Positions 10,561 through 55,919 of a stretch of DNA of 64,000 bases are shown one piece after another. The stretch comes from a bacterium. GTDB taxonomy: Bacteria; Verrucomicrobiota; Verrucomicrobiia; Limisphaerales; UBA11358. The position numbers were made by a program, and so were the translations under genes. Where the stretch lies: assembly GCA_021817945.1 (NCBI GenBank), contig JAKAFL010000010.1, positions 25,363 to 89,362 of the forward strand, written 5' to 3'. Below the pieces are notes generated by a model that did not search any database, was not told where the DNA came from, and saw nothing but the letters and a program-made list of their open reading frames with translations. The stretch's first letter is position 1, and each line of letters starts with the position of its first letter.

Positions 10561-10983
10561 GTTGTTTTGGTGCTTGTTACCACAAAGACTAAACCATGAG
10601 CAGGAGTCGTGACCACAAGTTTTTTTGAAAAAACCGTGCTCCCAGGAGGATGCCAGATCGGAGGGGACTATTTTCTGAAACGCTCAGGCGGCATGTTGCA
10701 GAATTATCATTTTAGATTATATTTTTTCAGGAAACCCAGAAACATGGCTGCGAATAGATTTTTTGAAGTTGGAGGCCCTGTTTGGATGGCAAGAGGAGGG
10801 CTTTTTGGTTCCCGCCGTCATGCCCGACACGAAGCCAATAAGCGCCTCATGGCGCCGCGAGAACCTGGCAGTCCGGTCCCAATGCCCGTTTTCATTACTG
10901 GCAGGTGGAAAGCAAATGGGAGGGAATTTCCGCCTTCGAAGCCGGCGTTTGGCTTGAGTTTTTTCTTTTATTCAAGGCGGTCA

Positions 10984-11478
10984 ATGTTTGGACATGGCCT
11001 TTGGCTTGCAACTGTTTTGGCGCTTTCATCAATGCTCACTTCCTTTGGGCAGGATGTCATTGAGTTGGGGAATCAGTCCGTATCTTTCACAAACTTGCTG
11101 GGACGGGCCTACGAGAAGGTTCAGTTGGAACGGGCGACGATGGATGGGCTTATTTATTCCCAGACAAACACGTTTAAGGTGGGCTTGGTGCGTTATTCCG
11201 ACCTGGCCACCAATTTTCTTGCCGGGTTGAAAATTCCTGAAACATTTCTGGCAAAGGCGGCGCGTCACCAACAGGAACTAGACCAGCAAAAAAAGGAGTT
11301 CGACGTGGCAGCGTACTTTAGGTCACTGCAAAACCTTGCAAACATCGTACCCAACACGAATAACATCTCCACCAATAATCCCTCCAAGAAGGGTTCGAAC
11401 GGCCGACAAAACGCATCGGCGCCTGGGAACCCATTGGATACCCCGCATTATTACCGGATCAGAATCATTCGCCGATAG
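10984..11478 (+). CDS. secreted hypothetical protein
   Basis: The track ORF opens at 10609, but only from the ATG at 10984 does it look protein-like. It has a signal peptide MFGHGLWLATVLALSSMLTSFGQ and a low-complexity N/S-rich tail. No family recognised. Confidence 0.45.
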   Translation: MFGHGLWLATVLALSSMLTSFGQDVIELGNQSVSFTNLLGRAYEKVQLERATMDGLIYSQTNTFKVGLVRYSDLATNFLAGLKIPETFLAKAARHQQELDQQKKEFDVAAYFRSLQNLANIVPNTNNISTNNPSKKGSNGRQNASAPGNPLDTPHYYRIRIIRR

Positions 11479-11588: not shown

Positions 11589-12491
11589 TCATTTGTCTCG
11601 TTTGAGCAGGTGCTGCGCCAAAGCCTCCAATGCAGCGGCGCGACCCCGGAACGGTTTCAAGGCAGAGAAAGCCTTCCGGGTGAGGTCGGCAGCAACGCGG
11701 CGGGATTTTTCCAGCCCCACCAAAGAGGGATAGGTGGCTTTTTGCGCAGCGATATCCTTGCCTGCAGTTTTACCAAGCTGCTCGCTGCTTTGCGTCACGT
11801 CCAAAATGTCATCTATGACTTGAAAGGCCAGTCCCACGTTGTAGCCAAATTCGGTCAGGGCTTTCAACTGGCTTGGAGTGCAATTCGCGCTCATTCCACC
11901 AAGGCGTACCGAGCAGCAAAGCAAGGCCGATGTTTTTCTCTCATGAATGTAACGCAGGTCGGCCAGCTTTAATTTTTTACCTTCCCCCTCCAGGTCGGCA
12001 ACCTGTCCGGCCACTAATTGCAGGGACCCGGAGGCCCGGGCCAGTTCCAGGATCAAATCGCGGTGGCCATACCTGGGCCACCCCCTGGAGGCGGAAGCGA
12101 TTTCAAATGCCTGGGTCAGGAGGGCGTCCCCGGCAAGGATGGCAATACCTTCTCCAAACACTTTGTGGTTGGTGGGTTTTCCGCGCCGGAAATCGTCATT
12201 ATCCATGGCCGGCAAATCATCGTGGACGAGGGAGTAAGTGTGAATGCATTCCACCGCGCATGCCAGTGGCATGGCATCGCCTTGCTTTCCGCCGCAGGCT
12301 TCCGCCGCCGCCAACAGTATGGCGGGACGCATGCGCTTGCCACCCGCAAAGAGGGAATACCTCATGGCTTCATGCAGGGTGGATGGACGCATTTTCCCCG
12401 GTGGCAGAAAATGATCCAGAGCCTGGTTCACCGCCTCGGTTTTTTGGTTCAAAAACGCGTTCAGATCAAATGCTTTTCCCTTGGTGGTCAT
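11589..12491 (-). CDS. polyprenyl diphosphate synthase (FPP/GGPP synthase family)
   Basis: First aspartate-rich motif DDLPAMDNDDFRRG and second motif DDILD. Start moved to the ATG at 12491 (MTTKGKAFD...) because the track start at 12659 would overlap rpoZ. Confidence 0.9.
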   Translation of the reverse strand: MTTKGKAFDLNAFLNQKTEAVNQALDHFLPPGKMRPSTLHEAMRYSLFAGGKRMRPAILLAAAEACGGKQGDAMPLACAVECIHTYSLVHDDLPAMDNDDFRRGKPTNHKVFGEGIAILAGDALLTQAFEIASASRGWPRYGHRDLILELARASGSLQLVAGQVADLEGEGKKLKLADLRYIHERKTSALLCCSVRLGGMSANCTPSQLKALTEFGYNVGLAFQVIDDILDVTQSSEQLGKTAGKDIAAQKATYPSLVGLEKSRRVAADLTRKAFSALKPFRGRAAALEALAQHLLKRDK

Positions 12492-12597
12492 AATATTGGC
12501 CCCCCAAAATGCCGGAAATCGGTTGGCGTTTGAAGGCATTTTTTGACGTTGCGCCAGCGCCTTTGTTCCGCTATGATGTGGGGCTATTGTTAATTGA

Positions 12598-12852
12598 ATG
12601 AACGCTGAACTTTGCAAAAAAGCCCTGGAAAAAGTTGGAAACCCCAATGTGCTGGTCAATCTCGTCTCCCGCCGAGTGCGCCAGTTGAATTCAGGGGGCG
12701 GTGGTTTGGGTCAGCCATTGATCATGGATGCGGGCACGCTGGGTCTCTCGGATATCGCCTTGCGTGAGATTATTGAGGAAAAAATCGGCTGGAATTTGCC
12801 GGAGCAGCAGGCGGCCGTGCGGCCTGTCGCTAAAAAGCGCAAAAAGCACTGA
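12598..12852 (+). CDS. rpoZ: DNA-directed RNA polymerase subunit omega
   Basis: 84 aa. The N-terminal segment ...KVGNPNVLVNLVSRRVRQL... matches the omega consensus (NRF/Y.LV..A.RRARQL). Confidence 0.75.
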   Translation: MNAELCKKALEKVGNPNVLVNLVSRRVRQLNSGGGGLGQPLIMDAGTLGLSDIALREIIEEKIGWNLPEQQAAVRPVAKKRKKH

Positions 12853-13023
12853 TTCCAAGCCCCGCACCGGCCGCTCGACACCATCGGCCCAATTATTTCG
12901 TTCGCCCGGAATGGACATCCGGGCAGGCAATTTTCGGGAAAATTTGCGAAATTTTTTTGTTTCCCAGATTTTTTCTTTCGCTTTTCTAATGTGTTAAGGC
13001 CCTAACCCGGCTAAATTTCTATC

Positions 13024-13479
13024 ATGGCTGATATCGTGAGCAATCCCAAAGCCCGCCGTGATTACCATATCCTCGAGGTTTTCGAGGCTGGAATAGTCCT
13101 GCAGGGAACAGAGGTAAAGGCCTTGCGCGCAGGCAAGGGCCAAATGGGTGATGCTTTTGCCCGGGTCGAGAAAAATGAGGTCTGGCTGTACAACGCTCAC
13201 ATAGACGAATATAGCCACGGCAACCTTGGAAACCATGTTCCCAAGTCCCCCCGCAAACTTTTGCTGCATCGCGCCGAGATTCGCAAAATATTTGGCCTGG
13301 CTTCGGTCCAAGGCCATGCCTTGGTGCCCCTGGCTTTTTACTGGAAAAACGGCAAAGTGAAGGTCTCCCTGGGAGTTGGAAAGGGGAAACTGGCTTATGA
13401 CAAACGGGAGGACCTCAAGAAACGCGATTCGGACAGGGAGCTTAAGCGGGCCGGAATGAAATGGTCCAAGGGAAAATAA
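13024..13479 (+). CDS. smpB: SsrA-binding protein
   Basis: 151 aa. NPKARRDYHILEVFEAGIVLQGTEVKALR...HIDEY...NH.P.R.RKLLLH..EI, canonical SmpB. Confidence 0.95.
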   Translation: MADIVSNPKARRDYHILEVFEAGIVLQGTEVKALRAGKGQMGDAFARVEKNEVWLYNAHIDEYSHGNLGNHVPKSPRKLLLHRAEIRKIFGLASVQGHALVPLAFYWKNGKVKVSLGVGKGKLAYDKREDLKKRDSDRELKRAGMKWSKGK

Positions 13480-15641: not shown

Positions 15642-15823
15642 AGCCTTGCAAGCGAAATCCCAGCGCCTTTTCAACGGATTTCACGGTTTCCTTCTCAGTA
15701 AAAAAAGGTTTTGCAGCGTTGCGGTTCTTTGGGGACCAAAAACGAAGGCAAAGGTGGAGTATGCTTGCAAAGTGCGGAAGGAAAGCCCACACAGGCAGCA
15801 GAAATTCCACCCAACAGCTTAAA

Positions 15824-15986
15824 CCCGAAAAGCGACATTGAAAGGGTCAAGATGCGGCAAGATGCGGGAGCGGAAACGCTTTTGAGAGATCGAAACCATA
15901 CCCGAAGCGGTCTGGTGAGATTTTTCCAAAGAGTTTGCGCCCAGCAGATTAGGGCAGATTGGCCTTTTGAATTTCGTTTTTGAGGG
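15824..15986 (+). repeat. palindromic intergenic repeat (MITE/ERIC-like), full-length copy 1, orientation A
   Basis: Starts CCCGAAAAGCGACATTGAAAGG and ends CCTTTTGAATTTCGTTTTTGAGGG, which are terminal inverted repeats. About 90% identical by eye to 31696-31857 and to the reverse complement of 36407-36568. Confidence 0.9.
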
Positions 15987-15997
15987 TTAAAACCACG

Positions 15998-16008
15998 CCC
16001 CCCCCCCC
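15998..16008. repeat. homopolymeric C11 tract
   Basis: Eleven consecutive C residues, counted directly (cacgCCCCCCCCCCCag). Intergenic, 12 nt after repeat copy 1. Confidence 0.95.
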
Positions 16009-16238
16009 AGCCAATTTTAAAACAGTCTCAATCCACTCTGGAATCGAGGCGTGGTAACGGCCTGAGAATGAGGAACGATTATATTGCAAGCGCTAGGCAG
16101 CCAGTTGATTTCAGGCACCGGCTCAAGGCTCAATGTTTGACGTGGCAAGGGTGCTAAGAGAACGGCAGCTTTTCCAAAATATCTTGCACAAAAATCGTCG
16201 GCAGGTGCCATTTCGATGGCAGAAATGATTTAAAAGGA

Positions 16239-30477: not shown

Positions 30478-30771
30478 GGAACCGTTTTAAAACTGTTTTA
30501 TTGGTTTACCGAACGCAAAGTGAAGTGTGGCTACTGTCAGTCAACGCGGCACTATTGCCTCTTAACACTAAGCAACGAGGTTGAAAGTGTCAAATTCTAA
30601 TGACTCATCAAATATCATTAAAAAAATTAATCTTGCGCGCACCTCAATGAACTAAAATGAATACTCCCCCTCCGCTGATTACCCGTATCCCCAGTCAGAC
30701 TGACGTTGGCCAACCTGCATCTGGAGTGATGTTCTCCTGAATGATTGCATTTATGCCTTTCCCTGATTGAA

Positions 30772-30850
30772 CCCGAAAAACGAAATTCAAAAGGCCAATC
30801 TGCCCCAATCTACTGGGCGCATCTTGACCTTTTCAATTTCGCTTTTCGGG
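30772..30850 (-). repeat. palindromic intergenic repeat, internally deleted copy 2 (orientation B)
   Basis: 79 bp. The first 50 nt and last 29 nt match the two ends of copy 4 (36407-36568), and the central 83 nt is missing. Confidence 0.85.
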
Positions 30851-31097
30851 TTAAAGACGGATGCCTTCAAGGCCGGTCCCTTGTGGCTCCGATTTTCCAT
30901 TCATGTCAAAAGTTTTTTGCTGAGACTGCCCAATGTTTTATCAGGGTTGGAAAACATTTTGCCAACACGCGCCATCCTTGGGCGAAAAAACGCGGGAAAT
31001 TCCGCTAAATATTGGCAAAGCCATGCATGCTGCCCGCTGGCACGGTGGTCGCTATCACGGAGTCATGCTAAAATTCTTTAACCGCTCCATGATTATT

Positions 31098-31652
31098 ATG
31101 AAACACAAACTGATCCGTTTTATCCTAGGCAGTTGTGTGAGTGTGATTGGCATGCAGGCAAGCGCTGACGAAGCTCCTGTCGCCACACCTGCGGCGCCGC
31201 CAGCCTCCATGCCGGAACATCTCACCTCCAGCCCTCCGCTTTCTTCCTATGACAACACTGGCCGCTTCGGGGCGGGGATTATTTTGGGTGAACCGACGGG
31301 TCTTTCGGTGAAATATTGGCTTAACGACAAGCTGGCCATTGATGGCGCTGCTGGATTTTCCTCTGCTGACCACACGGAATTCTATCTGCACAGCGATGTG
31401 TTGTGGCACAACTTTGATTTGATTCCAGTGCCTCAGGGACGCATGCCGGTTTATTTTGGAATCGGCGCCCTGGGTCGTTTGCGAGATGATCATCAAGACA
31501 ATCAGGTTGGCGTCCGTTTCCCGGTGGGAGTGTCTTACATGTTCGAGAACGCGCCGGTGGATGTTTTTGTGGAAGTTGCTCCTGCTATTGATGTTGCGCC
31601 GTCGGTGCAGGGCGAAATCACTGGTGGCGTTGGCATACGTTATTGGTTTTGA
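31098..31652 (+). CDS. small outer-membrane beta-barrel protein
   Basis: From the ATG at 31098. Signal peptide MKHKLIRFILGSCVSVIGMQASA. Alternating amphipathic strands (GLSVKYWL, AIDGAAGF, VYFGIGALG, VGVSYMF, VDVFVEVAP). C-terminal GVGIRYWF with a terminal aromatic residue. Confidence 0.7.
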   Translation: MKHKLIRFILGSCVSVIGMQASADEAPVATPAAPPASMPEHLTSSPPLSSYDNTGRFGAGIILGEPTGLSVKYWLNDKLAIDGAAGFSSADHTEFYLHSDVLWHNFDLIPVPQGRMPVYFGIGALGRLRDDHQDNQVGVRFPVGVSYMFENAPVDVFVEVAPAIDVAPSVQGEITGGVGIRYWF

Positions 31653-31695
31653 TGCGGCAACCGGTCCAGCCTCCCTCTGCCGCATGTGGCAATAT

Positions 31696-31857
31696 CCCGA
31701 AAAGCGAAATTGAAAGGGTCAAGATGCGGCAAGATGCTGGAGCGGAAACTGTTTGGAAAGATCGAAACCATACCCGAAGCGGTCTGGTGAGGTTTTTCCA
31801 AAGAGTTTGCGCCCAGTAAATTGGGGCAGATTGGCCATTTGAATTTCGTTTTTCGGG
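31696..31857 (+). repeat. palindromic intergenic repeat, full-length copy 3 (orientation A)
   Basis: CCCGAAAAGCGAAATTGAAAGG...CCATTTGAATTTCGTTTTTCGGG. Begins 44 nt after the OMP stop codon. Confidence 0.9.
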
Positions 31858-32135
31858 ATTATCCCCGTCACGGTTCGTTCTTGGGCAATCAGCGATGCAT
31901 GCCCGGGGTGAAAATCCAGTTGAGAAACCAAAGGAGCAGCGCAACCAAGCCAATCAGGACAGCCCCAAAGAAGAAGGTGAAAAACTTGATCTGCCTTTGG
32001 TGCGGCGAGGGCTTGCGCTTGAATGGCATTTTTAAAGGTAGGCGTGAAACCAATGTTTTTCAAATGCCCCTTTTCAGGCTGGCCGCGATGTTTACAACAT
32101 GGTGAATGGCCGCCGTGAGGATGAAGTGCCTTGTT

Positions 32136-32861
32136 TTAATTAAAAGCCCAGGCCAACCACGGCGCACAGAGCAGGGCAGGCAGGAAATTAGCCAGAGCCA
32201 CGCGGCGAACCTGCAAAATGACCGGGGCCATCGCACAGGTGATGAGTCCAGCGGTGGCGTTTTCCAGGTCCAATGCCTGATGCGCCAACAGGCACGGCAG
32301 CACCACGCCATGTGTCACCAGCGTCAAGCCATCAAAAAATCCCAGAACTGGCAATGCAGCCAGGGCCACCGGCCACCGACAGCCTTGCACAAAACTCATC
32401 ATGGCCATCCCGTCCATCATGGCTTTGATCAGGAACAGCCAGAAATCGCCATTCAACCCATCCGCCACAGATCCCACAATCCCCAATGGGGAGCTGCAGT
32501 AGAGCAAGGCTGCCGAAATCCAGGCTCCAGATGCCGGGGTCTTATTATCAGACCGGGAGGCTGACCCCAGCTTTTGAGCGGCCCAATGTCCCATCCAGTT
32601 GGATAAATTCTGCATCCCGGCCGCGCGGCCCAAAAAATGCCCTGCCACGAGGGCCAGGACCGCCAGCATTCCTTCCTTTAAAACATGGCTCAAAGGCCCA
32701 TGGACTCCCAGCCAGAACAAGTTCAAACCTGCCAATACGGTGGCCGCCCCCAAAAAGGATTTCATTCCAATTTGTGTACGCAGAGTCAGGGGCTTTGGCC
32801 ATGTCACACCCCAAAGCGCCCCAGCAAGGATCCCCAATGCGTTTAGAAATGCTCCAATCAT
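32136..32861 (-). CDS. DUF554 family membrane protein
   Basis: 241 aa. MIGAFLNALGILAGALWG start and about 7 hydrophobic helices, the pattern of the YdfK/YqgA-like DUF554 family. Confidence 0.75.
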   Translation of the reverse strand: MIGAFLNALGILAGALWGVTWPKPLTLRTQIGMKSFLGAATVLAGLNLFWLGVHGPLSHVLKEGMLAVLALVAGHFLGRAAGMQNLSNWMGHWAAQKLGSASRSDNKTPASGAWISAALLYCSSPLGIVGSVADGLNGDFWLFLIKAMMDGMAMMSFVQGCRWPVALAALPVLGFFDGLTLVTHGVVLPCLLAHQALDLENATAGLITCAMAPVILQVRRVALANFLPALLCAPWLAWAFN

Positions 32862-32952
32862 TTGCTCCCATCCTGAACCTTGACTCCAAAGAAAACAATT
32901 TCCATTACCGCAACCCAGCCTTATGGTTTTCGCCTTGGGCCAATTTTCAACA

Positions 32953-34236
32953 ATGCGGAGCCCGGCACCTCAATCGCCGTGGCCGTGGGTGCCTTCGCTT
33001 TATTTTGCGGAAGGTTTGCCCTATGCCTTGGTCGCTTCAGTGTCCGTGGTGGCCTACAAAAACCTCGGGGTTTCCAATGATATCGTGACCCTGTCTGCCA
33101 ATCTCCTGTGCCTGCCTTGGATGTTCAAGCCTCTTTGGAGCCCGGTTGTGGACCTGATCCGCACCCGGCGCCAGTGGGTCTGGGCATGCCAGATGATCAT
33201 GGCTTTATCCCTGCTGTGCCTGGCCTTGGCAGTGGAGTCCTCCCATTTTTTAATACTTTCATTGGTGGGCATGGCCTTGTTGAGCCTGACCTCGGCCACC
33301 CACGACATGGCCGCAGATGGTTTTTACCTGGTCACCCTCCCGGAATGGCAACAGGCGGCATTCTCCGGGGTGCGAAACACCGCCTATCGAGCCGCAGGCA
33401 TGGCCGCCCAAGCGGGCCTTGTCATGATGGCTGGCGCCCTTTATCAGCATGGCGGGTCTTACCAAAGCGCCTGGGCCGTCGCTTTGGGCTCATGCGCCCT
33501 CATCATGTTTTTACTGGCCAGCTACCATCACTTTCAACTGCCTTATCCTTCGGGTGACAGGCCTGGAAGCCACGCCATTGGAATGCCCTGGCTCCCGGAC
33601 TTTCTCAACGTGTTGGGCTCCTTTTTCCGCAAACGCCGCATCCTGATAATGCTGGCATTTCTCCTTTTTTATCGTTTCGGCGAGGCCCAACTTGCACCCG
33701 TTTCACGCCTATTTCTGCTGGATGCGCCTGATAACGGAGGCTTGGGATTGACCGATCCCCAGTATTCCCGGATTTATGGCCTGTGGGGCCTTGCCGCTTT
33801 GCTGGGAGGCGGGCTGCTGGGGGGATGGTTGATTTCACGCCATGGCTTGAGACGCTGGCTTTGGCCCATGGTTCTGGCTTTGCACGTTCCTGACGGCTTG
33901 TTTCTATGGCTTGCCTGTGCCAAGCCATCCAGCCTGCTTTTGATCACCCTCGGCGTGAGTGTGGAACAATTCGGCTACGGATTCGGGTTTGCCGCGTACA
34001 TGATGTATATGCTCCACATGGCTCGGGGAAGGCATTCCACGGCTCATTACGCCCTCTGCACGGGTTTCATGGCCGCCGGCTTGTTGATCCCCGGCCTTTG
34101 GAGTGGATGGCTCCAACTGCGCCTGGGTTACCCGCTCTTTTTTGCCTGGGTCCTGCTCGCCACCATCCCGGGCTTCGTTGTGGCAGCATGCCTTTCCGTG
34201 CCCCGAAATCTCGGGCGCCGCTCACCAATCCGTTGA
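32953..34236 (+). CDS. MFS transporter, AmpG-like (muropeptide/lysophospholipid permease family)
   Basis: PWVPSLYFAEGLPYALV and FKPLWSPVVD blocks typical of the AmpG/LplT clade. About 12 TM helices. Start taken at the ATG at 32953 (the track ORF opens at 32923). Confidence 0.78.
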   Translation: MRSPAPQSPWPWVPSLYFAEGLPYALVASVSVVAYKNLGVSNDIVTLSANLLCLPWMFKPLWSPVVDLIRTRRQWVWACQMIMALSLLCLALAVESSHFLILSLVGMALLSLTSATHDMAADGFYLVTLPEWQQAAFSGVRNTAYRAAGMAAQAGLVMMAGALYQHGGSYQSAWAVALGSCALIMFLLASYHHFQLPYPSGDRPGSHAIGMPWLPDFLNVLGSFFRKRRILIMLAFLLFYRFGEAQLAPVSRLFLLDAPDNGGLGLTDPQYSRIYGLWGLAALLGGGLLGGWLISRHGLRRWLWPMVLALHVPDGLFLWLACAKPSSLLLITLGVSVEQFGYGFGFAAYMMYMLHMARGRHSTAHYALCTGFMAAGLLIPGLWSGWLQLRLGYPLFFAWVLLATIPGFVVAACLSVPRNLGRRSPIR

Positions 34237-34301
34237 CCGCATTCCAGCAAACTGAATTGCCTTTGCCACGCCAGCTTTCGTAGAATCGCCATTGTCGCCA
34301 T

Positions 34302-35534
34302 ATGATGCCATTTCACTCATACACCGCCCGGATCTTCCACAACACCCTGCAAACGAAAGGGTCCTTCATTTTATTCCCGGCCAGCCTGGTGTTCATACTG
34401 TCAGTTAGCCTGTTCCAAGTCCCTGGCCAAAATATGGACGCTCCACAGCCGGTCCACGGCCCCACTCCGGTGGTGCACAGGCCCAGTATTATTTTACTTC
34501 AATTCCACGGCCTGGCTTTTGGGGATTTAAGCTGCCTGGGCCAGACCCAGTTCCAAACTCCCAACTTCGACGAATTGGCCGGAGAGGGAATGACATTCAC
34601 CCATTTTACTCCCGGAACCACCAACCCTGCGGAGGCCCAAGCCCGGTTTTTAAACTGTGTTTCGTATTCTGACCAGACAATGCCCCTCGCGAGCATTCTC
34701 AAATCCGCCGGTTATCGTACGGGATTCATTGGCGAATGGCCCCTGCCAGGCCAGCCCTGGGATCAGGGTTTTGATGAATTTGCCGGATTTCTCAATCCCG
34801 ACCTTGGCACCAATTATTACGCCGACACCTTCTGGCGCCGCACGCCTAAAATGTTTTACAATAACATGACGCACAATTGGATGGAATGGAACCCTGCCGA
34901 CGGCCCCAACAACGGAGGTCAGGAGATGATTTACCAAAACATCCAGGGTCATCAAGGCCGGTACCTCCCCGATTTCATGTTCACCTGGGTACTTCATTTC
35001 ATGCAGGACAACATGCCCCAATGGTACACAGGCTACCGCCCTTTTTTCCTGGTCGTCAACCTCCCGGCGCCCCGCTCTGCCGCGCCCGGCAAGGATGTTT
35101 TCCCGGTTCCCACAGACGCTCCCTTTTCAGACGAACCCTGGCCACAGCCCGCCAAAAATCGGGCAGCCCTTCTCACCCGACTTGATGGCAGCATTGCCAC
35201 GCTGTTGCAAAAACTTCGGCAAAAGGGCCTGACCAATGAGGTGGCCGTCTTTCTCACCAGCAGCGAGCCGCCAGCTCCGTACTCGACACCGGGCATGGGT
35301 TTTCTTCAAGCGCCTGAAGACCGTGCCAACACAACCAATTCCGCGCCGCTTGCCCCCATGATCACCTATTGGCCCGGCGTGATCCCTGCGGGAAAAACCA
35401 ATAACGAACCCTGGCAAGCCTCCGATTTTCCCGCCACGGCATTGCAAATAGCCGGTTGCAAACCCGTCGGCAAAATTTCAGGAACCTCCATCATCCCCCT
35501 TTTGCAGGGACATGATAGGCCATCCCAACCCTGA
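34302..35534 (+). CDS. sulfatase-fold protein with degenerate active site (likely non-catalytic)
   Basis: 410 aa with an N-terminal anchor. Collinear with the type I sulfatase N-terminus but with substitutions: SIILLQFHGLAFGDLSCLG vs consensus NI.L...DDLG.GDLG.YG; TPNFDELAGEGMTFTHF conserved; TNPAE in place of C/S-x-P-x-R; GEWPLPG in place of GKWHLG. Confidence 0.7.
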   Translation: MMPFHSYTARIFHNTLQTKGSFILFPASLVFILSVSLFQVPGQNMDAPQPVHGPTPVVHRPSIILLQFHGLAFGDLSCLGQTQFQTPNFDELAGEGMTFTHFTPGTTNPAEAQARFLNCVSYSDQTMPLASILKSAGYRTGFIGEWPLPGQPWDQGFDEFAGFLNPDLGTNYYADTFWRRTPKMFYNNMTHNWMEWNPADGPNNGGQEMIYQNIQGHQGRYLPDFMFTWVLHFMQDNMPQWYTGYRPFFLVVNLPAPRSAAPGKDVFPVPTDAPFSDEPWPQPAKNRAALLTRLDGSIATLLQKLRQKGLTNEVAVFLTSSEPPAPYSTPGMGFLQAPEDRANTTNSAPLAPMITYWPGVIPAGKTNNEPWQASDFPATALQIAGCKPVGKISGTSIIPLLQGHDRPSQP

Positions 35535-35841
35535 TTTGGAAAAAGGGTCGTAAAGGGGCTGAATCTGCCGTTTTTTTGAACGTCACCATAAATGGGCACA
35601 AAGTCATATTTTAGCATTCTTTAGAGAGACGATGAAAAACTTGCTGAGTTTTTTATCCGACTTGGATTAGAACCCTTATAGAGCAGGACAGAAGGTGACG
35701 CTTATCAAAAGGAACATTTTCCAAATCGCCTGAAACGAACAATCCCGGCTTTCTGAGATTTGAAAATGACCCCACATTGCGAGCAAAGGCCTTGGAAACC
35801 GCCATTTTCCGCTCAAAACCACCAGACAATTCCGAGTGGAG

Positions 35842-36193
35842 TGGTGGAGGCGGCGGGAGTTGAACCCGCGTCCCAAGTCAACCAACCAGCCGCGACTACA
35901 TGCTTAGCCCGGGATTTTTTTTCTGCATCGCGATGGCGCCCGGGCACGAGTCGCTTTGCCTAGTCCGCATGAAATTTCTCGGCTGACTGCGCGCGGTCCC
36001 CGCATTCAACCATGCCTGCTGTTGCGTTCATCCACCTTAGCAGGCGTGGAGCAGTGAACGTCACGGCACTTAGGCCGCGAGGGCTAATTCTTCGTTAGCT
36101 TTTTTGTTTTGATGCGATGATTAACGAGGCCAACGCATCGTCCTCGGCATGCCGCCTCTGGCGTGTTCACATGGTCGAAACCAGTACGCCCCC
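35842..36193 (-). ncRNA. ssrA: tmRNA (SsrA)
   Basis: The reverse complement starts GGGGGCGTACTGGTTTCGAC and ends GGGACGCGGGTTCAACTCCCGCCGCCTCCACCA. The 7-bp acceptor stem has a G3:U70 pair, and there is a T-arm GCGGG-TTCAACT-CCCGC. The internal tag frame ...AAA AAA GCT AAC GAA GAA TTA GCC CTC GCG GCC TAA encodes ...ANEELALAA. Confidence 0.92.
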
Positions 36194-36209
36194 AGAACAG
36201 TCATAACCC

Positions 36210-36238: not shown

Positions 36239-36406
36239 GGAAGGGTTCAACTAAAAATCCAGGCCTGTAACGATACAGTAATTAATGTTTATGGCGGAAA
36301 CTTTCGTTTGATGTTCAGACGGGCTTAATTCTGCCTACACAAATGGAGTGCTGCGGACCTTCAGTATCAATTTTTTCGAGGCCGGCTCCTGTTCTCTATC
36401 TTTGAA

Positions 36407-36568
36407 CCCGAAAAACGAAAATCAAAAGGCCAATCTGCGTCAATCTACTGGGCGCAAACTCGTTGGAAAAACCTCACCAGATCGCTTCGGGTATGGTTTC
36501 GATTTTTCCGAAGAGGTTCCACTCCAGCATTCTGCCGCATCTTGACCCTTTCAATTTTGCTTTTCGGG
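36407..36568 (-). repeat. palindromic intergenic repeat, full-length copy 4 (orientation B)
   Basis: CCCGAAAAACGAAAATCAAAAGG...CCCTTTCAATTTTGCTTTTCGGG(G). Its reverse complement aligns end to end with copies 1 and 3. It lies 41 nt downstream of the stop of the receiver gene at 36609. Confidence 0.9.
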
Positions 36569-36608
36569 GTGAAATACTTTTTTCAGCAAATGATGCAGGC
36601 TGAAGGAT

Positions 36609-37910: not shown

Positions 37911-39317
37911 TCAGGCAGGTGAATTGTTTTTTCCATTCCACCCGAACAACTTTTTGGTGCGGATCATTTCAAAAATGGGTGCGGGTATGATTTCGGAGAG
38001 CTTTTCATCGCCTGCATGAATTTTGGCCAGAACATCGCTGGAATAAACTTTCAAAGCTTCCGGGTTATGGTTGGGGATGTTGGCGATGAAACCGTTTTCA
38101 AGAAGATGCGCGTAAAGGTGGCGAATATTTTGGGCCACCTCCAATGTCTCCACCGTGGTGAGTTTGCCCGTGACCTTGTCGAGCGAGGGGTAAACATAAA
38201 GCTTGGCCCCATTTTTAAAAAGCTGGCCCAGGGATTCCATCAGGCCGCCCGGAAGGTCTGTGTAAAATTTTTCATCAAACACATCCCGCAACCGCACCAG
38301 GCCGATGGGAAGGCCAATCGGACGGTCAGTCTGCCGGGAGAGGTAGGTGACCAGCCGGTGGTAGCGTAGGAAGTTGGAGATCATCACCGGCTTGCCCAGC
38401 GCTGCCAGGGTGTCAACCCGGTCCAGAAAATCTTGATGATCAATTTTATTGCCCACCTGCAACTGGCGCAGGGTCATTTCAAATAAAACCACGGGTTGTT
38501 CGCCGGGGGCGCATTTTTCACGGATAAAATGTTCCTGCCCGCGTTCCATCATATCCAACATTGGGTTGGTGAGGGGACGGAAACTGCCGCGCTCCACAAG
38601 GACAGGCTTTTTCCACAACAATTCGCCGGGGATGATGGTTTCGCCGTCTGCGGTGAACATGGCGGCTTCCGTGAGCCATTGCTCCACCAGTTGAAGGGCC
38701 ATGAGCCGGTTATCCACCTTGGTGAAGGCTGGCCCGGAAAACTTGATCATGTCCACTTCCACCCGGGCGCTGGAAAGGTCATCCAGCAATGAGCCGATAA
38801 GCTCGGCTGGGTTGGCGCTTTGATAGAAAGCTGCATGGAGCAGGTTCACCCCGATGATGCCCAGGGCTTCCTGCTGGCGGAGGCTTTCCTTGTCCAGGGT
38901 GCGGACGTGAATGATGATTTGGGAAGGCTCCTCGCGGATATGGGACTGGAATTTCACGCCCAACCAGCCTTGGCCTTCATCTCTTTTGGTGGCCACGGTG
39001 TCGGCAAAGACAAAAAACGCACACTTTTCCCCACGGGAGGCATCCAATCGCTTCAGTAAAAGATCATATTCCAAGTCCAGCATGGACTGGAGACGCTTGC
39101 GGCTGACGTAACGATCGGATTTCCCGTAAATGGCATCGCTTACGGACATGTCGTAGGCGGAAATGGTTTTGGCCACGGTCCCCGAGGCTTTGCCGACATG
39201 AAAGAAGCGGCGGGCAACCTCCTGGCCAGCGCCAATTTCTGCAAATGTGCCATATCGTTTGGCATCCAGGTTAATCTGGAGGGCCTTTTCATCAGTGTTC
39301 ATTTTTTCGCCGTTCAT
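37911..39317 (-). CDS. conserved protein of unknown function
   Basis: From the ATG at 39317, 468 aa. No TM helix or signal peptide. The strongly protein-like N-terminal block INLDAKRYGTFAEIGAGQEVARRFFHVGKASGTVAKTISAYDMSVSDAIYG is one I recall as conserved in uncharacterised proteins, but I cannot name a family. Confidence 0.75.
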   Translation of the reverse strand: MNGEKMNTDEKALQINLDAKRYGTFAEIGAGQEVARRFFHVGKASGTVAKTISAYDMSVSDAIYGKSDRYVSRKRLQSMLDLEYDLLLKRLDASRGEKCAFFVFADTVATKRDEGQGWLGVKFQSHIREEPSQIIIHVRTLDKESLRQQEALGIIGVNLLHAAFYQSANPAELIGSLLDDLSSARVEVDMIKFSGPAFTKVDNRLMALQLVEQWLTEAAMFTADGETIIPGELLWKKPVLVERGSFRPLTNPMLDMMERGQEHFIREKCAPGEQPVVLFEMTLRQLQVGNKIDHQDFLDRVDTLAALGKPVMISNFLRYHRLVTYLSRQTDRPIGLPIGLVRLRDVFDEKFYTDLPGGLMESLGQLFKNGAKLYVYPSLDKVTGKLTTVETLEVAQNIRHLYAHLLENGFIANIPNHNPEALKVYSSDVLAKIHAGDEKLSEIIPAPIFEMIRTKKLFGWNGKNNSPA

Positions 39318-39455
39318 ATTGCTTTCCTTTCTTCGCTGAACCGAGAGTAATCCAGTCAGCAACCATTGTTCAATACCGCAATCAAACCATGAATGGACCG
39401 GGTTGGGTGGAATTCTGGTCTTTCCGTCCCTTTTTGGGACGCTATAATCAGGGAC

Positions 39456-40535
39456 ATGTATCGTACGCAGGACCTCCACGTCAAAGAAATCGTGCCATTG
39501 CTTTCGCCAAGGGCGCTGCGAAATTTAATGCCCACGCCGGACACAGCCAATGCCACAGTGGCGCGCAGTCGTGAACGCGTCATTCGCATTCTGCGCCAGG
39601 AAGATCCCCGGCTGCTGGTGGTCATTGGCCCCTGCTCCATTCATGACCAATCCAGCGCCATCGAATATGCGCGCAAACTCAACGCGCTCCGCATAGAACT
39701 GGCAGACCGGATGGAAATTGTGATGCGCGTGTATTTCGAGAAACCGCGCACCACCATAGGCTGGAAGGGGCTCATCAATGATCCGCACCTCGATGGTTCC
39801 CAGGATATTGGCACGGGACTGCAGATTGCCCGGAAACTTTTATTGGAGATCACGGAAATGGGCATGCCTGCGGCGACGGAATTCTTGGATCCCATTGTGC
39901 CGCAATACATTGCGGATTTGGTGACATGGGCGGCCATTGGGGCCCGCACCACGGAATCCCAAACACACCGTGAAATGGCCAGTGGATTGTCCATGCCCGT
40001 GGGTTTGAAAAACAGCACGGATGGGAGTTTGCAGGTGGCGATTGATGCGATGAATGCCACGAGTCATCCGCATAGTTTTCTGGGGATCAATGAGGATGGT
40101 TTGACCAGCATAGTGCGCACGAACGGCAATCCCCATGCGCATGTCGTGCTAAGGGGCGGCAGGGCCATGACGAATTACGATGCGGCCAGCATCAAGGCGG
40201 CGGAGGAGAAATTGGAGCGTGAAAAACTGCCCCGGGTGCTGATGGTGGATTGCAGCCACGCCAATTCCTCGAAACAATTTGCGCGACAGGAGGACGTCTG
40301 GCACAGCGTGATTGAACAGCGGGTGCAAGGCTCCAAATCATTGATTGGGCTGATGGTGGAAAGCCACCTTCACGAGGGAAACCAACCCATCACCCAAGGG
40401 TCAGCCCAACTGAAATACGGGGTCAGCATTACCGATTCATGCATCGGCTGGGAAACCACCGAACGCATGCTTCGGTGGGGGCATGAAGCCTTGACCAGAT
40501 TATTTGACGAAAAAGCTTTGTCTCCAAAAGCTTAA
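39456..40535 (+). CDS. aroG: 3-deoxy-7-phosphoheptulonate (DAHP) synthase, class I
   Basis: From the ATG at 39456: MYRTQDLHVKEIVPLLSP...RLLVVIGPCSIHD...YFEKPRTT.GWKGLINDP...GARTTESQ.HRE. Collinear with E. coli AroG/F/H. Confidence 0.93.
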   Translation: MYRTQDLHVKEIVPLLSPRALRNLMPTPDTANATVARSRERVIRILRQEDPRLLVVIGPCSIHDQSSAIEYARKLNALRIELADRMEIVMRVYFEKPRTTIGWKGLINDPHLDGSQDIGTGLQIARKLLLEITEMGMPAATEFLDPIVPQYIADLVTWAAIGARTTESQTHREMASGLSMPVGLKNSTDGSLQVAIDAMNATSHPHSFLGINEDGLTSIVRTNGNPHAHVVLRGGRAMTNYDAASIKAAEEKLEREKLPRVLMVDCSHANSSKQFARQEDVWHSVIEQRVQGSKSLIGLMVESHLHEGNQPITQGSAQLKYGVSITDSCIGWETTERMLRWGHEALTRLFDEKALSPKA

Positions 40536-41970: not shown

Positions 41971-43488
41971 GTGAAAAATGTTTCATTTGAAAGGGTGAGC
42001 ACTGCATTAAACACAAATGTTGATAAAAAGCATAGGAACGGATCCATTTCTCCGTCAAATGGCAATAAAGTGCAGAAGAAAGATAGTGGGTTGAACCAAG
42101 ATGCTATAATTTTGATCAACAAAGAAAACGGGTTTTCTTACAAGGCTTTTCCAATAAGCATTGATTTGCGGTCAATTGTTTTTGAATGTTTTAACCGCGG
42201 GTTGAAACCGAAACCGACTGAATCAATTGAGAATTTTAAATTAATATTTAATGACATCCTTGTTTACGAAGGGGAGGCGATCATTTGTAATGTGATTGAT
42301 TGCGGATCTAAATTTATATGCGAGGGAGTCCTTCAGAGGGCTGCATGGATAGATGAGTCGGTTGACGCATTAACAAATTTTAGTCGAAATTCGATTGAAA
42401 ACGGGACTTTTTTGGAAAAGATTAGAAAACCTTATTGCATTGAAAATGAATATAGACTGGCCGTATGTAAAATTGAGGACTTTTTGCGGAGTTTAAAAAA
42501 CCTCTGTGATTTAGTCTCATGCCGAATTTCATCAGGCCCCAAAAACAATTATCCAAGGTCTGAGAATGAAGCCGCCCTTGAAATGAGAGATTTTTCAACA
42601 CTTTCCTTGAAAACAATCTTTGAAGAATTTGAACTGGCCGCCCGAAAAATTCCATTAGATTTAAAGGAAGTTCACGCATTATACGCGCAAAGAGTTTTAC
42701 ATCCATGGCTGCTTTGCAGCCCATTAATAAATCGAACCTACGTGAAGCCTTTGGGGTACGCGGGGGATTACGAAATGATGAATATGCTCGTTAGAAACGG
42801 GCTTGAAGGGGCTAATCTATATGCAAAACTGGTGAACTCCTTTCTTTTGGATCAGCCTCCAGCGCATGCTGTTCGAAACAGGGTCAATTTCCTAAATAAA
42901 AGTATAATTAACGAATCATACAGAGTGGCTGCATCTGGTAAGCATGCCAATATTTACTGTATAGCCTGCGGTCCTGCATGGGAAGTGTCTAATTTTATAC
43001 AGGAAAACCCTCTTGCGAGGAATGCGAGATTCACCTTGTTGGATTTCAATCAAGAGACTCTGGACCATACCTCAACAAAAATCAGGAACATTTATAAAGA
43101 CAAAAAAATAAAATGTGAGCCTGTTTTTGTAAAAAATTCAGTTCAAAATATCATTAAAGCCGGAGCTTTGGGCAAATTAGCAAATAATAAATATGATCTT
43201 ATTTATTGCTCGGGTCTATATGATTACTTGACTGATTCGGTATGCAAGGCTTTAAACACCTGTCTTTTTGAAATGTTGAATCCAGGTGGCTTATTGGTTG
43301 TGGGGAATTTTGCAAAAACCACCCCAATAACAAATTTTATGGAGCATCTTTTGGAATGGAACCTCATATACAGAGACAAAGATGAAGTTTTGGCCCTTAA
43401 GCCCGAAACTGCTAGCACCTCGGAATGTGTGGTCAAAAGCGAACCATCAGGAACCAATTTTTTCCTTGAAGTTCGAAAACATGGCTGA
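41971..43488 (+). CDS. class I SAM-dependent methyltransferase with an N-terminal domain of unknown function (PhcB-like candidate)
   Basis: 505 aa, GTG start. Rossmann MTase motifs: I IYCIACGPAWE, post-I FTLLDFN, II YDLIYCSGLYDYL, III LNPGGLLVVGNF. Upstream block KPLGYAGDYEMMNML. The gene is very AT-rich compared with its neighbours. Confidence 0.8.
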   Translation: MKNVSFERVSTALNTNVDKKHRNGSISPSNGNKVQKKDSGLNQDAIILINKENGFSYKAFPISIDLRSIVFECFNRGLKPKPTESIENFKLIFNDILVYEGEAIICNVIDCGSKFICEGVLQRAAWIDESVDALTNFSRNSIENGTFLEKIRKPYCIENEYRLAVCKIEDFLRSLKNLCDLVSCRISSGPKNNYPRSENEAALEMRDFSTLSLKTIFEEFELAARKIPLDLKEVHALYAQRVLHPWLLCSPLINRTYVKPLGYAGDYEMMNMLVRNGLEGANLYAKLVNSFLLDQPPAHAVRNRVNFLNKSIINESYRVAASGKHANIYCIACGPAWEVSNFIQENPLARNARFTLLDFNQETLDHTSTKIRNIYKDKKIKCEPVFVKNSVQNIIKAGALGKLANNKYDLIYCSGLYDYLTDSVCKALNTCLFEMLNPGGLLVVGNFAKTTPITNFMEHLLEWNLIYRDKDEVLALKPETASTSECVVKSEPSGTNFFLEVRKHG

Positions 43489-47962: not shown

Positions 47963-49513
47963 ATGAAAAAATCAGGAAATACCCAGGCGCTGCGCACTTT
48001 CAGAAATGCGCGGCTTGTTTCTGGCGCAGGGATGGCGGGAGTTTTGCTGGCCAGCCACCTGGCCTTGGCGGATGGGGATGATCGCCACTGGTCAAGCCAG
48101 GTGAACCAGGTGGGGGATGTTTTTATTATTGCCCTTGAAAACCATAATTTCACCCAACCCAATCCCACGGCCACGCCCCAACAGATTTTCGGCAACCCTG
48201 CCGCTCCTTATCTCAACAGTCTGGTGACGCCGGGCAACCCCAATTCGGCTCAAGTTTCCTATGCCTCGCATTATTTCAATGCCGGCACCGGGGTTCACCC
48301 CTCGGAACCCAACTACGTTTGGGCCGAGACAGGGACGGATTTTGGCTTCCATTCTGATGCCGACCCCAGCTACGCCAACGGAAATAAATTTTATGATAAT
48401 TCCAGCTCGTTGATCAGCTCCCTGAATGCCAGCGGCAACCAGGTTTTGACGTGGCATTTTAACAGAACGCCCCATCTGGTTGCGCAACTGGATGCAGTCG
48501 GCATTCCCTGGAAAAATTACCAGGAAGACGTTTCGCTATCCCAATCACCCACCAATAGCGCCTATGGCACCAACGGGCCTGTGAATCCTTTCAATGGCAC
48601 CACCCAGTACAACTACGCTCCCAAGCACAATCCCATGGCGTTCTTCACCGAAAGCGCCTTTGCCAACGTCTATGAATTGTCGCAATTGTTCACGGATTTG
48701 GCCAATAACACGGTTGGCCGCTACAACTGGATCACCCCAGACCAGTATAATGAGGCCCATAGCCCGCTGAATAATGGCTTCACTTACAACGGGGTGCATT
48801 ATACGGGCGACCAATCATCCGTGGCCTCTGCAGACAATTTCCTTTCCCATGTGATCCCGCAAATCATGGCATCCAAGGCCTATCAAGACAACGGTGTCAT
48901 CGTCCTTTGGTGGGATGAATCTGAAGGTGGCGACACGACGTCCCAATCCGTTCCCGAAATCATCATCTCCCCGCTGGCGAAGGGCAACGCCTATGCCAGT
49001 CCCGTTGCCATGAACCATTCCTCCGACATCAAAACCTGGGAGGAGGTTTTCGGCCTGCCCGCGCTTAACAATCCAATCCCCGCCACTGAGACAAACGTGG
49101 AGCAAGCTGGTGTCTTCAACAATGTTGCCACCGTGAACGATCTGAGCGACCTGTTTGTTCCGGGAGCCATTCCAACCAACGCCTTCTCCGTGACAAGCGA
49201 AGGTTTTGTGACGGATGGACGCAACGGCCACAAAAAGGAGACCCTCCGCATCACAAACACTGGCTCCACTGCAGTTTACAATTCTATCTGGATCGCCTTG
49301 GACAACCTCACTCCGGGTGTCACGCTGTTGAATGCTGATGCCAACACCGAAGTTCTGGCCCCCTTGGGCAGCCCTGCGGTCAAACTGAACGACGGCGACG
49401 ACAACATTTTGCGCCCATATCAAAGCCGCAAAGTAACCTTGGAATTCCTGGATCCCAACTCTGACCCAATCACCTACGACCCCCGTGTCCTCAACGTTGA
49501 ACCGGCTCCTTGA
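47963..49513 (+). CDS. secreted phosphoesterase-family protein (AcpA / phospholipase C-like)
   Basis: 516 aa with a signal peptide. The motifs ALENHNF and HPSEPNYVWAETG are typical of the phosphoesterase family. The last ~110 aa form an extra beta-rich domain. Confidence 0.75.
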   Translation: MKKSGNTQALRTFRNARLVSGAGMAGVLLASHLALADGDDRHWSSQVNQVGDVFIIALENHNFTQPNPTATPQQIFGNPAAPYLNSLVTPGNPNSAQVSYASHYFNAGTGVHPSEPNYVWAETGTDFGFHSDADPSYANGNKFYDNSSSLISSLNASGNQVLTWHFNRTPHLVAQLDAVGIPWKNYQEDVSLSQSPTNSAYGTNGPVNPFNGTTQYNYAPKHNPMAFFTESAFANVYELSQLFTDLANNTVGRYNWITPDQYNEAHSPLNNGFTYNGVHYTGDQSSVASADNFLSHVIPQIMASKAYQDNGVIVLWWDESEGGDTTSQSVPEIIISPLAKGNAYASPVAMNHSSDIKTWEEVFGLPALNNPIPATETNVEQAGVFNNVATVNDLSDLFVPGAIPTNAFSVTSEGFVTDGRNGHKKETLRITNTGSTAVYNSIWIALDNLTPGVTLLNADANTEVLAPLGSPAVKLNDGDDNILRPYQSRKVTLEFLDPNSDPITYDPRVLNVEPAP

Positions 49514-49595: not shown

Positions 49596-49701
49596 ACGGG
49601 TTTGCCCCGACGGATCCGCCTCGCCCAAGGCCAGAATCCGCGGCCGCAGCATCTTTCAAACTTTTCAGACAGGCGGCGCGCCAAGGCGGTTTGGGAGATG
49701 T

Positions 49702-54518: not shown

Positions 54519-55919
54519 TCAAGGTTTAAAAAGACGGAAAAAGACCGGCGGTCCTGATTGGTTTAAATCCACTGTAAAAGGGGTGGTCGCGCCGCCGGCC
54601 ATGTTTGACCAGGCAGACCCAATTCCAGCGCTATTGGTCTGGGCCTGGATTTGAAAGCCCGGATACGTGGCGGAATCCCAGGACAAAGTTAATTTTCCAC
54701 CGACTGCGGCAAGGCTGAGGCGAGGCTGAGAGTTGCCGCCCAGCGCTTTAATGGATCCGCTGGAATCCAAGTTGTCCGCCCACGACATTCCCGCAGGCAA
54801 AGCTGGCAGTAGCACCGAGCTGAAGGCTCCCGCGTAGCTTTGGGCTTGAAACAGGGAGAAGACAGAGCCTGGGGCAGGTGGCGGTCCGGAATTGATGATG
54901 CTTAAATTTCCAGAATAATAAAAAGTGGGCCCGCTTCCCGCATTCGCCGCCAGCGAGATCGCCCCGGGGTTGGCCAGGTCAAATACCAGGGTTCCGTTCA
55001 AACCCGGTGTGTTCGTGTTGAGGTTGATCACGGCTTCGTTGGTATAAATCCCGTTCACGACCAGGGTGGGCAGCGTAAAAGGGCTGCCGGTTATCATGCC
55101 CGAGCCATTGAAATTAATGCTGGCATAGGCTATGCCCTTCAATGTCCCGCCATTATTGGCAAAGTTTCCAAGAACATACCAGTTTGTGGAATCAAGAATG
55201 TTCAATGTTCCATTGGTGTCAATGGTCAGATCGTTGAAGGAATCATTCCCAGCCGCCCCGTCATTGTCAGTGAGCGTGGCCCCGCCGCCGATGATGGTGT
55301 TGCCAAGGACCGTAAGATTGGCCAACGAACAATCCCAGTTCACATTCGTGCTGCCTGTGCCGCCAAGGATCAGGCTGCCATTGATCGTGAAATCATCCGC
55401 CTCCTGAACGCTGGCCTTGCCGGATACGGTCATGTTTCCGGAAATGATCATGGGCGTCAAACCATCCCCGTAGGTGTCCTGGCCTATTTCCCCATTATAC
55501 AAGGTGCCGCCCCCGCTCAGCACAAGGTTGTAATAGTTCTGGTGTTTGGCCCAAAACGCGTTGCCGGAATAGATGACCGTGTTGCCTGCGGCGCTGGCAT
55601 CCAGCAACCCCAGTTGTTGCGTGCCATTGGCCTGCGCGGAATCACCCACCACCGTCAAGGTGGCATTCGCACCCATGGTCACCGTCCCTCCATCGTAAAT
55701 AAATTGCACGCTGGCATTCGTGGAAACAGTCACGTCTATTCCTGCCGGGATGTCGGCATCGTCATTGGTGCCCGGCACAGTGGCGCTGTTCCAGATGGTG
55801 GGGTCCCCCCAGGTTCCGCTGTTGGTTGCGGTAATGTCCATGGATTGCAGCAGGTATTGCGATGCGATCAATGTGGCCAGCACGATGGAGGTGGCATGAA
55901 GATTTTGTTTGGCATTCAT
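54519..55919 (-). CDS. secreted beta-helix repeat protein (autotransporter-associated beta-strand repeat type)
   Basis: 466 aa with a signal peptide. A long run of G/N/T/S-rich ~25-aa beta-strand repeats, then a C-terminal beta-sandwich-like tail ...LTLSWDSATYPGFQIQAQTN...FFRLFKP. Confidence 0.72.
   Translation of the reverse strand: MNAKQNLHATSIVLATLIASQYLLQSMDITATNSGTWGDPTIWNSATVPGTNDDADIPAGIDVTVSTNASVQFIYDGGTVTMGANATLTVVGDSAQANGTQQLGLLDASAAGNTVIYSGNAFWAKHQNYYNLVLSGGGTLYNGEIGQDTYGDGLTPMIISGNMTVSGKASVQEADDFTINGSLILGGTGSTNVNWDCSLANLTVLGNTIIGGGATLTDNDGAAGNDSFNDLTIDTNGTLNILDSTNWYVLGNFANNGGTLKGIAYASINFNGSGMITGSPFTLPTLVVNGIYTNEAVINLNTNTPGLNGTLVFDLANPGAISLAANAGSGPTFYYSGNLSIINSGPPPAPGSVFSLFQAQSYAGAFSSVLLPALPAGMSWADNLDSSGSIKALGGNSQPRLSLAAVGGKLTLSWDSATYPGFQIQAQTNSAGIGSAWSNMAGGATTPFTVDLNQSGPPVFFRLFKP

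Follow-up and report, generated by a model that had tools for sequence, protein, structure and literature searches.

A probable new family of miniature inverted-repeat transposable elements with a 5-bp TTNAA target in Limisphaerales

The imperfect palindrome of about 162 nt that recurs in the window (the whole 64,000-nt stretch of DNA analysed here) very probably represents a previously undescribed family of miniature inverted-repeat transposable elements (MITEs) in Limisphaerales, comprising a full-length form of about 162 nt and a short subfamily of 79 nt. The element is short (under ~400 bp), carries no transposase gene, ends in terminal inverted repeats, is flanked by a target-site duplication and is precisely missing from empty sites, all of them defining traits of a MITE. 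A preliminary description of the window had already put it forward as a new MITE-like family, and this assignment stands, with no Rfam match and no paper found that describes it. As bacterial repeats go, the element is genuine but of a common kind.

Four copies had been described in the window, and a 29-nt terminal probe allowing up to 3 mismatches matched exactly these four sites, with no match in 100 shuffles. No further copy was detected in the window by an nhmmer search using a profile built from nine full copies. Copy 1 (15824-15986, plus strand, 163 nt) and copy 2 (31696-31857, plus strand, 162 nt) are full-length and in orientation A, copy 3 (36407-36568, 162 nt) is full-length with orientation A on the minus strand, and copy 4 (30772-30850, minus strand) is a short form of 79 nt. 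A repeat finder paired 15824-15989 with 31696-31861 as a direct repeat (92%), paired copies 1 and 2 each with 36407-36568 as inverted repeats (85-91%), and matched 30767-30855 to both arms of the element. Pairwise identity between full copies, judged by eye at about 90%, is 85-92% ungapped and 87-93% by BLAST, and identity to the family consensus reaches 93.8%, 96.9% and 92.6% for copies 1, 2 and 3 respectively. An identical duplicate of copy 1 is found in a Logan contig (L034) that ends within the element.

The window is ordinary chromosome, encoding DnaJ, HtrA, ribosomal proteins S7 and S12, GlnD, SmpB, transaldolase, biosynthetic enzymes and two-component proteins. Copy 1 lies 182 nt past the stop codon of a DUF3826 gene and is convergent with tRNA-His, copy 2 is located 43 nt downstream of an OMP-like gene, and copy 3 is located 40 nt downstream of a receiver-domain gene and 213 nt upstream of the tmRNA. 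Copy 4 occupies the divergent region between a pyruvate:ferredoxin oxidoreductase gene and the OMP-like gene. All four copies are outside long ORFs, as the preliminary description had it, while only ~32% of the 391 TTNAA sites in the window (the target sequence, see below) are intergenic by this definition; a restriction of this kind is what selection against insertions in genes usually leaves behind. Directly after copy 1 and before a terminator-like hairpin downstream of tRNA-His, we also noted a run of 11 C (15998-16008), which could be slippage-prone or a weakness of the assembly.

The consensus is 162 nt long, starts with CCCG and ends with CGGG, and its terminal inverted repeats are CCCGAAAAGCGAAATTGAAAGG and CCCGAAAAACGAAATTCAAAAGG. 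Comparison of its left half with the reverse complement of its right half (~78 aligned positions) gave 62 Watson-Crick pairs, with 4 G-T, 1 A-C and 12 further mismatched positions. The unit as a whole thus forms a single imperfect palindrome, and both the terminal repeats and the long hairpin claimed for it are present. Complementarity between the arms extends over ~75 nt, which is longer than typical terminal repeats of insertion sequences and counts as a point against the MITE reading. The left arm carries a subterminal motif of 8-10 nt, CAAGATGC, twice (as CAAGATGCGG, then CAAGATGCTGG), and as three units in one copy (L030); the right arm carries its own subterminal motif, CAGATTGG, likewise twice repeated. 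Copy 4 had been called truncated, but it retains both termini and has an internal deletion that removes the apical part of the hairpin. Its deletion junction, GATGCG joined to CCCAGTAG, was seen again in an unrelated contig (L036:10050-10126), and because the same junction recurs there we treat the short form as a subfamily rather than a truncation.

Evidence for transposition comes from the flanks of the element. Copy 1 is bounded by TTAAA on both sides (15819-15823 and 15987-15991), which had been taken as a hint of target-site duplication. The corresponding 5-mers are AATAT (31691-31695) and ATTAT (31858-31862) for copy 2, TTGAA (36402-36406) and GTGAA (36569-36573) on the plus strand for copy 3, and TTGAA (30767-30771) and TTAAA (30851-30855) for copy 4. 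Over the 16 copies from different loci for which both flanks were available, left and right 5-mers share 71 of 80 bases; random re-pairing of left and right flanks gave 52.6 of 80 on average, and a value of 71 was reached in none of 20,000 shuffles. The pairs are perfect in 7 of the 16 copies, including TTTGA and TTAAG, which are not palindromic, so that an extended inverted repeat does not account for them. The target consensus of these copies is T-T-N-A-A, with the central variable base identical left and right in 13 of 16.

The preliminary description had proposed a search of relatives for more copies and for empty sites, and this search yielded both: further copies in other genomes, and two empty sites in a single sister locus, L011 (contig DAIDJC010000189 of the MAG GCA_027451565.1). 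L011 was reached through a protein homologous to the OMP-like one. It runs colinear to window positions 30567-35626 at 92-95% nucleotide identity, as measured over 4.8 kb, which places the window in a close relative of this MAG within Limisphaerales. At the site of copy 4, TGA-TTGAA-[79 nt]-TTAAA-GACG in the window corresponds to TGA-TTAAA-GACG in L011, leaving a gap of exactly 84 nt (79 + 5). At the site of copy 2, GGC-AATAT-[162 nt]-ATTAT-CCCC in the window corresponds to GGC-ATTAG-CCCC in L011; this second site was read from the sequences themselves and is unambiguous, the aligner having put the gap elsewhere. Since one 5-mer is left at each empty site, the element proper is CCCG...CGGG and its insertion duplicates 5 bp, so that the suspected target-site duplication is upheld. 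We discarded a 3-bp TNA duplication with element ends A...T, as copy 2 has T...A at these positions, which is what a 5-bp direct repeat predicts. The high identity of copy 2 to the consensus (96.9%) fits an insertion after the split of the two genomes. For copy 1 no empty site was found: the sole close relative of the DUF3826 gene is on the Logan contig, which is 100% identical but breaks off within the element and is therefore uninformative. We also observed that synteny with the sister locus stops just past a sulfatase gene (window 35626-36200 versus L011:4827-6368); beyond this point the window has the tmRNA (35842-36193, minus strand) and copy 3, and the sister MAG has an RtcB gene. This break beside the tmRNA is a rearrangement or an island boundary.

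The alternative that survives best, although we consider it unlikely, is that the element is mobile DNA kept for its transcript. In this reading the orientation A hairpin at the 3' end of an mRNA would stabilise the message, provide a site for its processing or aid termination, as has been shown for ERIC and Correia-type repeats. Folding of copy 1 as RNA gave -72.3 kcal/mol (z = -6.8) for strand A and -41.3 kcal/mol (z = -1.9) for strand B, and strand A folded better by 10-31 kcal/mol in all 11 copies tested. This difference arises because the consensus positions that do not form Watson-Crick pairs are almost all G-U or purine-purine, in part tandem, when read on strand A, which has 4 G-U pairs and 11 mismatches between purines, compared with one of each on strand B. 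A bias towards the sense orientation was also seen, with 10 copies sense and 3 antisense in co-directional gene contexts and 4 of 5 copies sense to the nearer gene in convergent contexts. Strand asymmetry and sense bias together are not predicted by a purely selfish element. However, the strand asymmetry counts as one observation because all copies inherited it from one master sequence, the co-directional bias has a two-sided p of ~0.09 with loci that are not fully independent, and copy 4 lies in a promoter region and not in a 3' UTR.

The substitution pattern also argues against this alternative. Among 57 predicted pairs we found no compensatory change, and the 14 full copies carry 132 substitutions in 132 paired positions and 36 in 30 unpaired positions, so that change at paired positions keeps pace with that at unpaired ones. 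Changes that preserve pairing through wobble are not favoured either, with 31 single changes keeping the pairing for strand A and 39 for strand B. Selection for an RNA gene or structure was thus rejected on the grounds of no Rfam match, no covariation and a neutral substitution pattern, and a promoter or terminator function was rejected because consensus scans gave matches to either kind of site only at the rate expected by chance. The earlier suggestion that the hairpin affects termination or mRNA stability was accordingly not confirmed, and an RNA-level role of the element is not supported.

It is very improbable that the element is a palindrome of REP/BIME type or derived from IS200/IS605 and mobilised in single-stranded form by a tyrosine HUH transposase (RAYT or TnpA-Y1). 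The copies are palindromic, intergenic and often between convergent genes, and no DDE transposase was found, all of which would suit such an origin, but these elements insert without target duplication, while the present unit has a verified 5-bp duplication, a length of 162 nt and CCCG ends. Just as improbable is that the copies are left over from segmental duplication, or from one conserved regulatory module, rather than being products of transposition: the element does alternate with a ~250-nt repeat in tandem units of ~412 nt in L036, and some copies have therefore multiplied by local duplication, but the copies of the window resemble each other precisely as far as CCCG and CGGG, their flanking DNA has nothing in common beyond the 5-mer, and presence and absence are precise at two sites.

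For the MITE family, we propose that a transposase encoded elsewhere would act in trans by binding the terminal repeats, and that the same enzyme may also bind the subterminal motifs CAAGATGC of the left arm and CAGATTGG of the right arm. This enzyme, probably of the DDE type, would make a 5-bp staggered cut at TTNAA and insert the element. Insertions in genes would be purged by selection, leaving the intergenic copies, and inserted copies would then decay neutrally. An effect on neighbouring transcripts through a hairpin in the 3' UTR, if any, would be a by-product and not a conserved function.

To look for this enzyme, we searched 49 ORFs of the window against Pfam, and five that stayed unannotated also against NCBIfam. 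No transposase or integrase family was detected among them, in agreement with the claim that no transposase lies nearby. The five long ORFs (10609-11478, 37911-39479, 41971-43488, 47963-49513 and 54519-55919; 289-522 aa) have no Pfam match (E <= 1e-4) and no NCBIfam match (E <= 0.01), and none is flanked by element ends. A cognate transposase with matching terminal repeats, which the preliminary description had proposed to search for, was not found: exact-pattern searches of the window, the fetched loci and the genome, metagenome, viral and plasmid collections returned no autonomous partner with matching ends. An exact-pattern scan of genome contigs with the right arm retrieved only element copies in one MAG and a chance match in Flavobacteriales. 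This match (L009:2826-2867 in a Flavobacteriales MAG), the sole one outside Limisphaerales, was discarded as a 24-nt identity within an ordinary terminator-like hairpin, AAAAGGCCAATC...GATTGGCCTTTTT. Families with similar target duplications offer leads only. IS1380/ISEcp1 is an IS family with 5-bp A/T-rich duplications. IS1634 makes duplications of 5-6 bp in A/T-rich tracts and ISH3 makes duplications of 5 bp (PMC2266710). By duplication length and A/T-rich target, these three are candidate sources of the transposase; no member of any of them with matching ends was found.

We then considered whether the repeat is coding. On strand B the consensus has two open frames, which accounts for spurious gene calls across copies, and indels shift the frames between copies. 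As noted in the preliminary description, copies do not share a consistent ORF, and since the proteins called across them belong to no Pfam family, a coding role was rejected. Ten 'hypothetical proteins' of public collections (P0121-P0130; loci L014-L023, L024-L028 and L035-L036), with lengths of 158-279 aa, are read-throughs of the element and hence annotation artefacts. A further case, P0131 (L030:10001-10834), is a 277-aa ORF with an alpha-L-fucosidase domain whose last ~55 residues come from an element in orientation B; either the element truncated or re-terminated a glycosidase gene, or the ORF is over-extended.

To assess the distribution of the family, we scanned one genome per species with a pattern of the repeat, which identified nine contigs of the Limisphaerales MAG GCA_027451565.1, together carrying ~13 copies or fragments. 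Six-frame translation searched against a collection of 5.8 billion proteins retrieved 11 spurious proteins across copies, and the contigs encoding them extended the family to at least six other MAG assemblies at NCBI as well as to many ENA assemblies. In one of these loci (L036), six copies or fragments are found within a single 13-kb stretch. No family match was obtained in JGI metagenome contigs (right-arm pattern and both-arm pattern), in viral contigs (shortened both-arm pattern) or in plasmid records. Nothing in the window reached the gathering score of an Rfam family, nor did the interval 15750-16050 yield a match with the limit set at E <= 1. Our search of the literature found no description of the family or of a TTNAA-targeting bacterial element, and no paper on a MITE in Limisphaerales (Verrucomicrobiota).

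Two other small repeats were encountered in related genomes. Repeat Y (~330 nt) has its own terminal repeats, ATGGAGCCTGTCTTAAAATT...AATTTTAAGACAGGCTCAT, and, at L035:1287-1617, is nested in a copy of the element; in L001, L002 and L006, its right end adjoins the right arm of the element at the same internal position, around 105. Copies of Y are many in the related loci, and one fragment is present in the window between convergent genes (49596-49674; 79 nt, 81% identical). What appeared to be the start of a lipoprotein gene beside partial copies is really a terminal repeat of Y. Repeat X (~250 nt) was found at L036:10128-10352, 12394-12640 and 12803-13049 and at L006:5701-5916, and it is X that alternates with the element in the ~412-nt tandem units of L036, downstream of an S8 peptidase gene. 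Two more far-reaching readings can be drawn from these data, namely an undescribed transposase lineage with a strict 5-bp TTNAA target, with Y at one fixed position (same junction in four copies), or a domesticated 3'-UTR hairpin module selected for orientation, whose purine-rich strand is the functional RNA; even taken jointly, we regard them as unlikely.

In practical terms, the family serves as a marker of recent change in the genomes of an uncultured lineage of Verrucomicrobiota and separates genomes that are ~94% identical. It also breaks short-read assemblies, several contigs ending inside copies. With its ends and TTNAA target known, copies can be masked cleanly, strains can be typed and the transposase can be sought in a directed way. 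Concepts of how such elements work are unchanged by this family.

Among known repeats, Correia/NEMIS elements of Neisseria and ERIC/YPAL elements of enterobacteria resemble the present family as imperfect palindromes of 100-170 nt. Both groups are co-transcribed with flanking genes, and orientation-dependent effects on mRNA are documented for them. Correia elements have a TA duplication, terminal repeats of ~26 bp and an IHF site; the present element differs by its 5-bp duplication instead of TA. TIMEs derived from Tn3 and IMU share with the element a 5-bp target duplication at A/T-rich sites. Ends of the Tn3 family start with GGGG and span ~38 bp, while those of the element start with CCCG, and the element had no plasmid match. 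For IMU, the 5-bp duplication is reported in PMC3184786. REPs, as described in PMC3733652, are G+C-rich palindromes 20-40 nt long with GTAG or CGTC heads and no target duplication, from which the element departs in size, ends and duplication alike. The definition of bacterial MITEs has been reviewed (PMC3184786; Delihas, 2011), and the element shares with them a length below 200 nt, terminal inverted repeats, flanking direct repeats, the absence of a transposase, a long RNA stem-loop, intergenic locations and positions that vary between related strains. It differs from them in having no sequence similarity to any record searched, no parent insertion sequence found, and Limisphaerales as its host lineage. 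A close counterpart is bcr1 of the Bacillus cereus group (~155 bp; PMC3184786, PMC6542083), which is alike in size, in its 5-bp A/T-rich direct repeats and in positions that differ between close strains, and which is likely transcribed together with neighbouring genes. It belongs to another phylum with no homology detected, and it has a fixed TTTAT motif, a two-hairpin cruciform and compensatory changes (PMC3184786, PMC6542083), whereas the element of Limisphaerales has a TTNAA target, one long hairpin and no compensatory changes.
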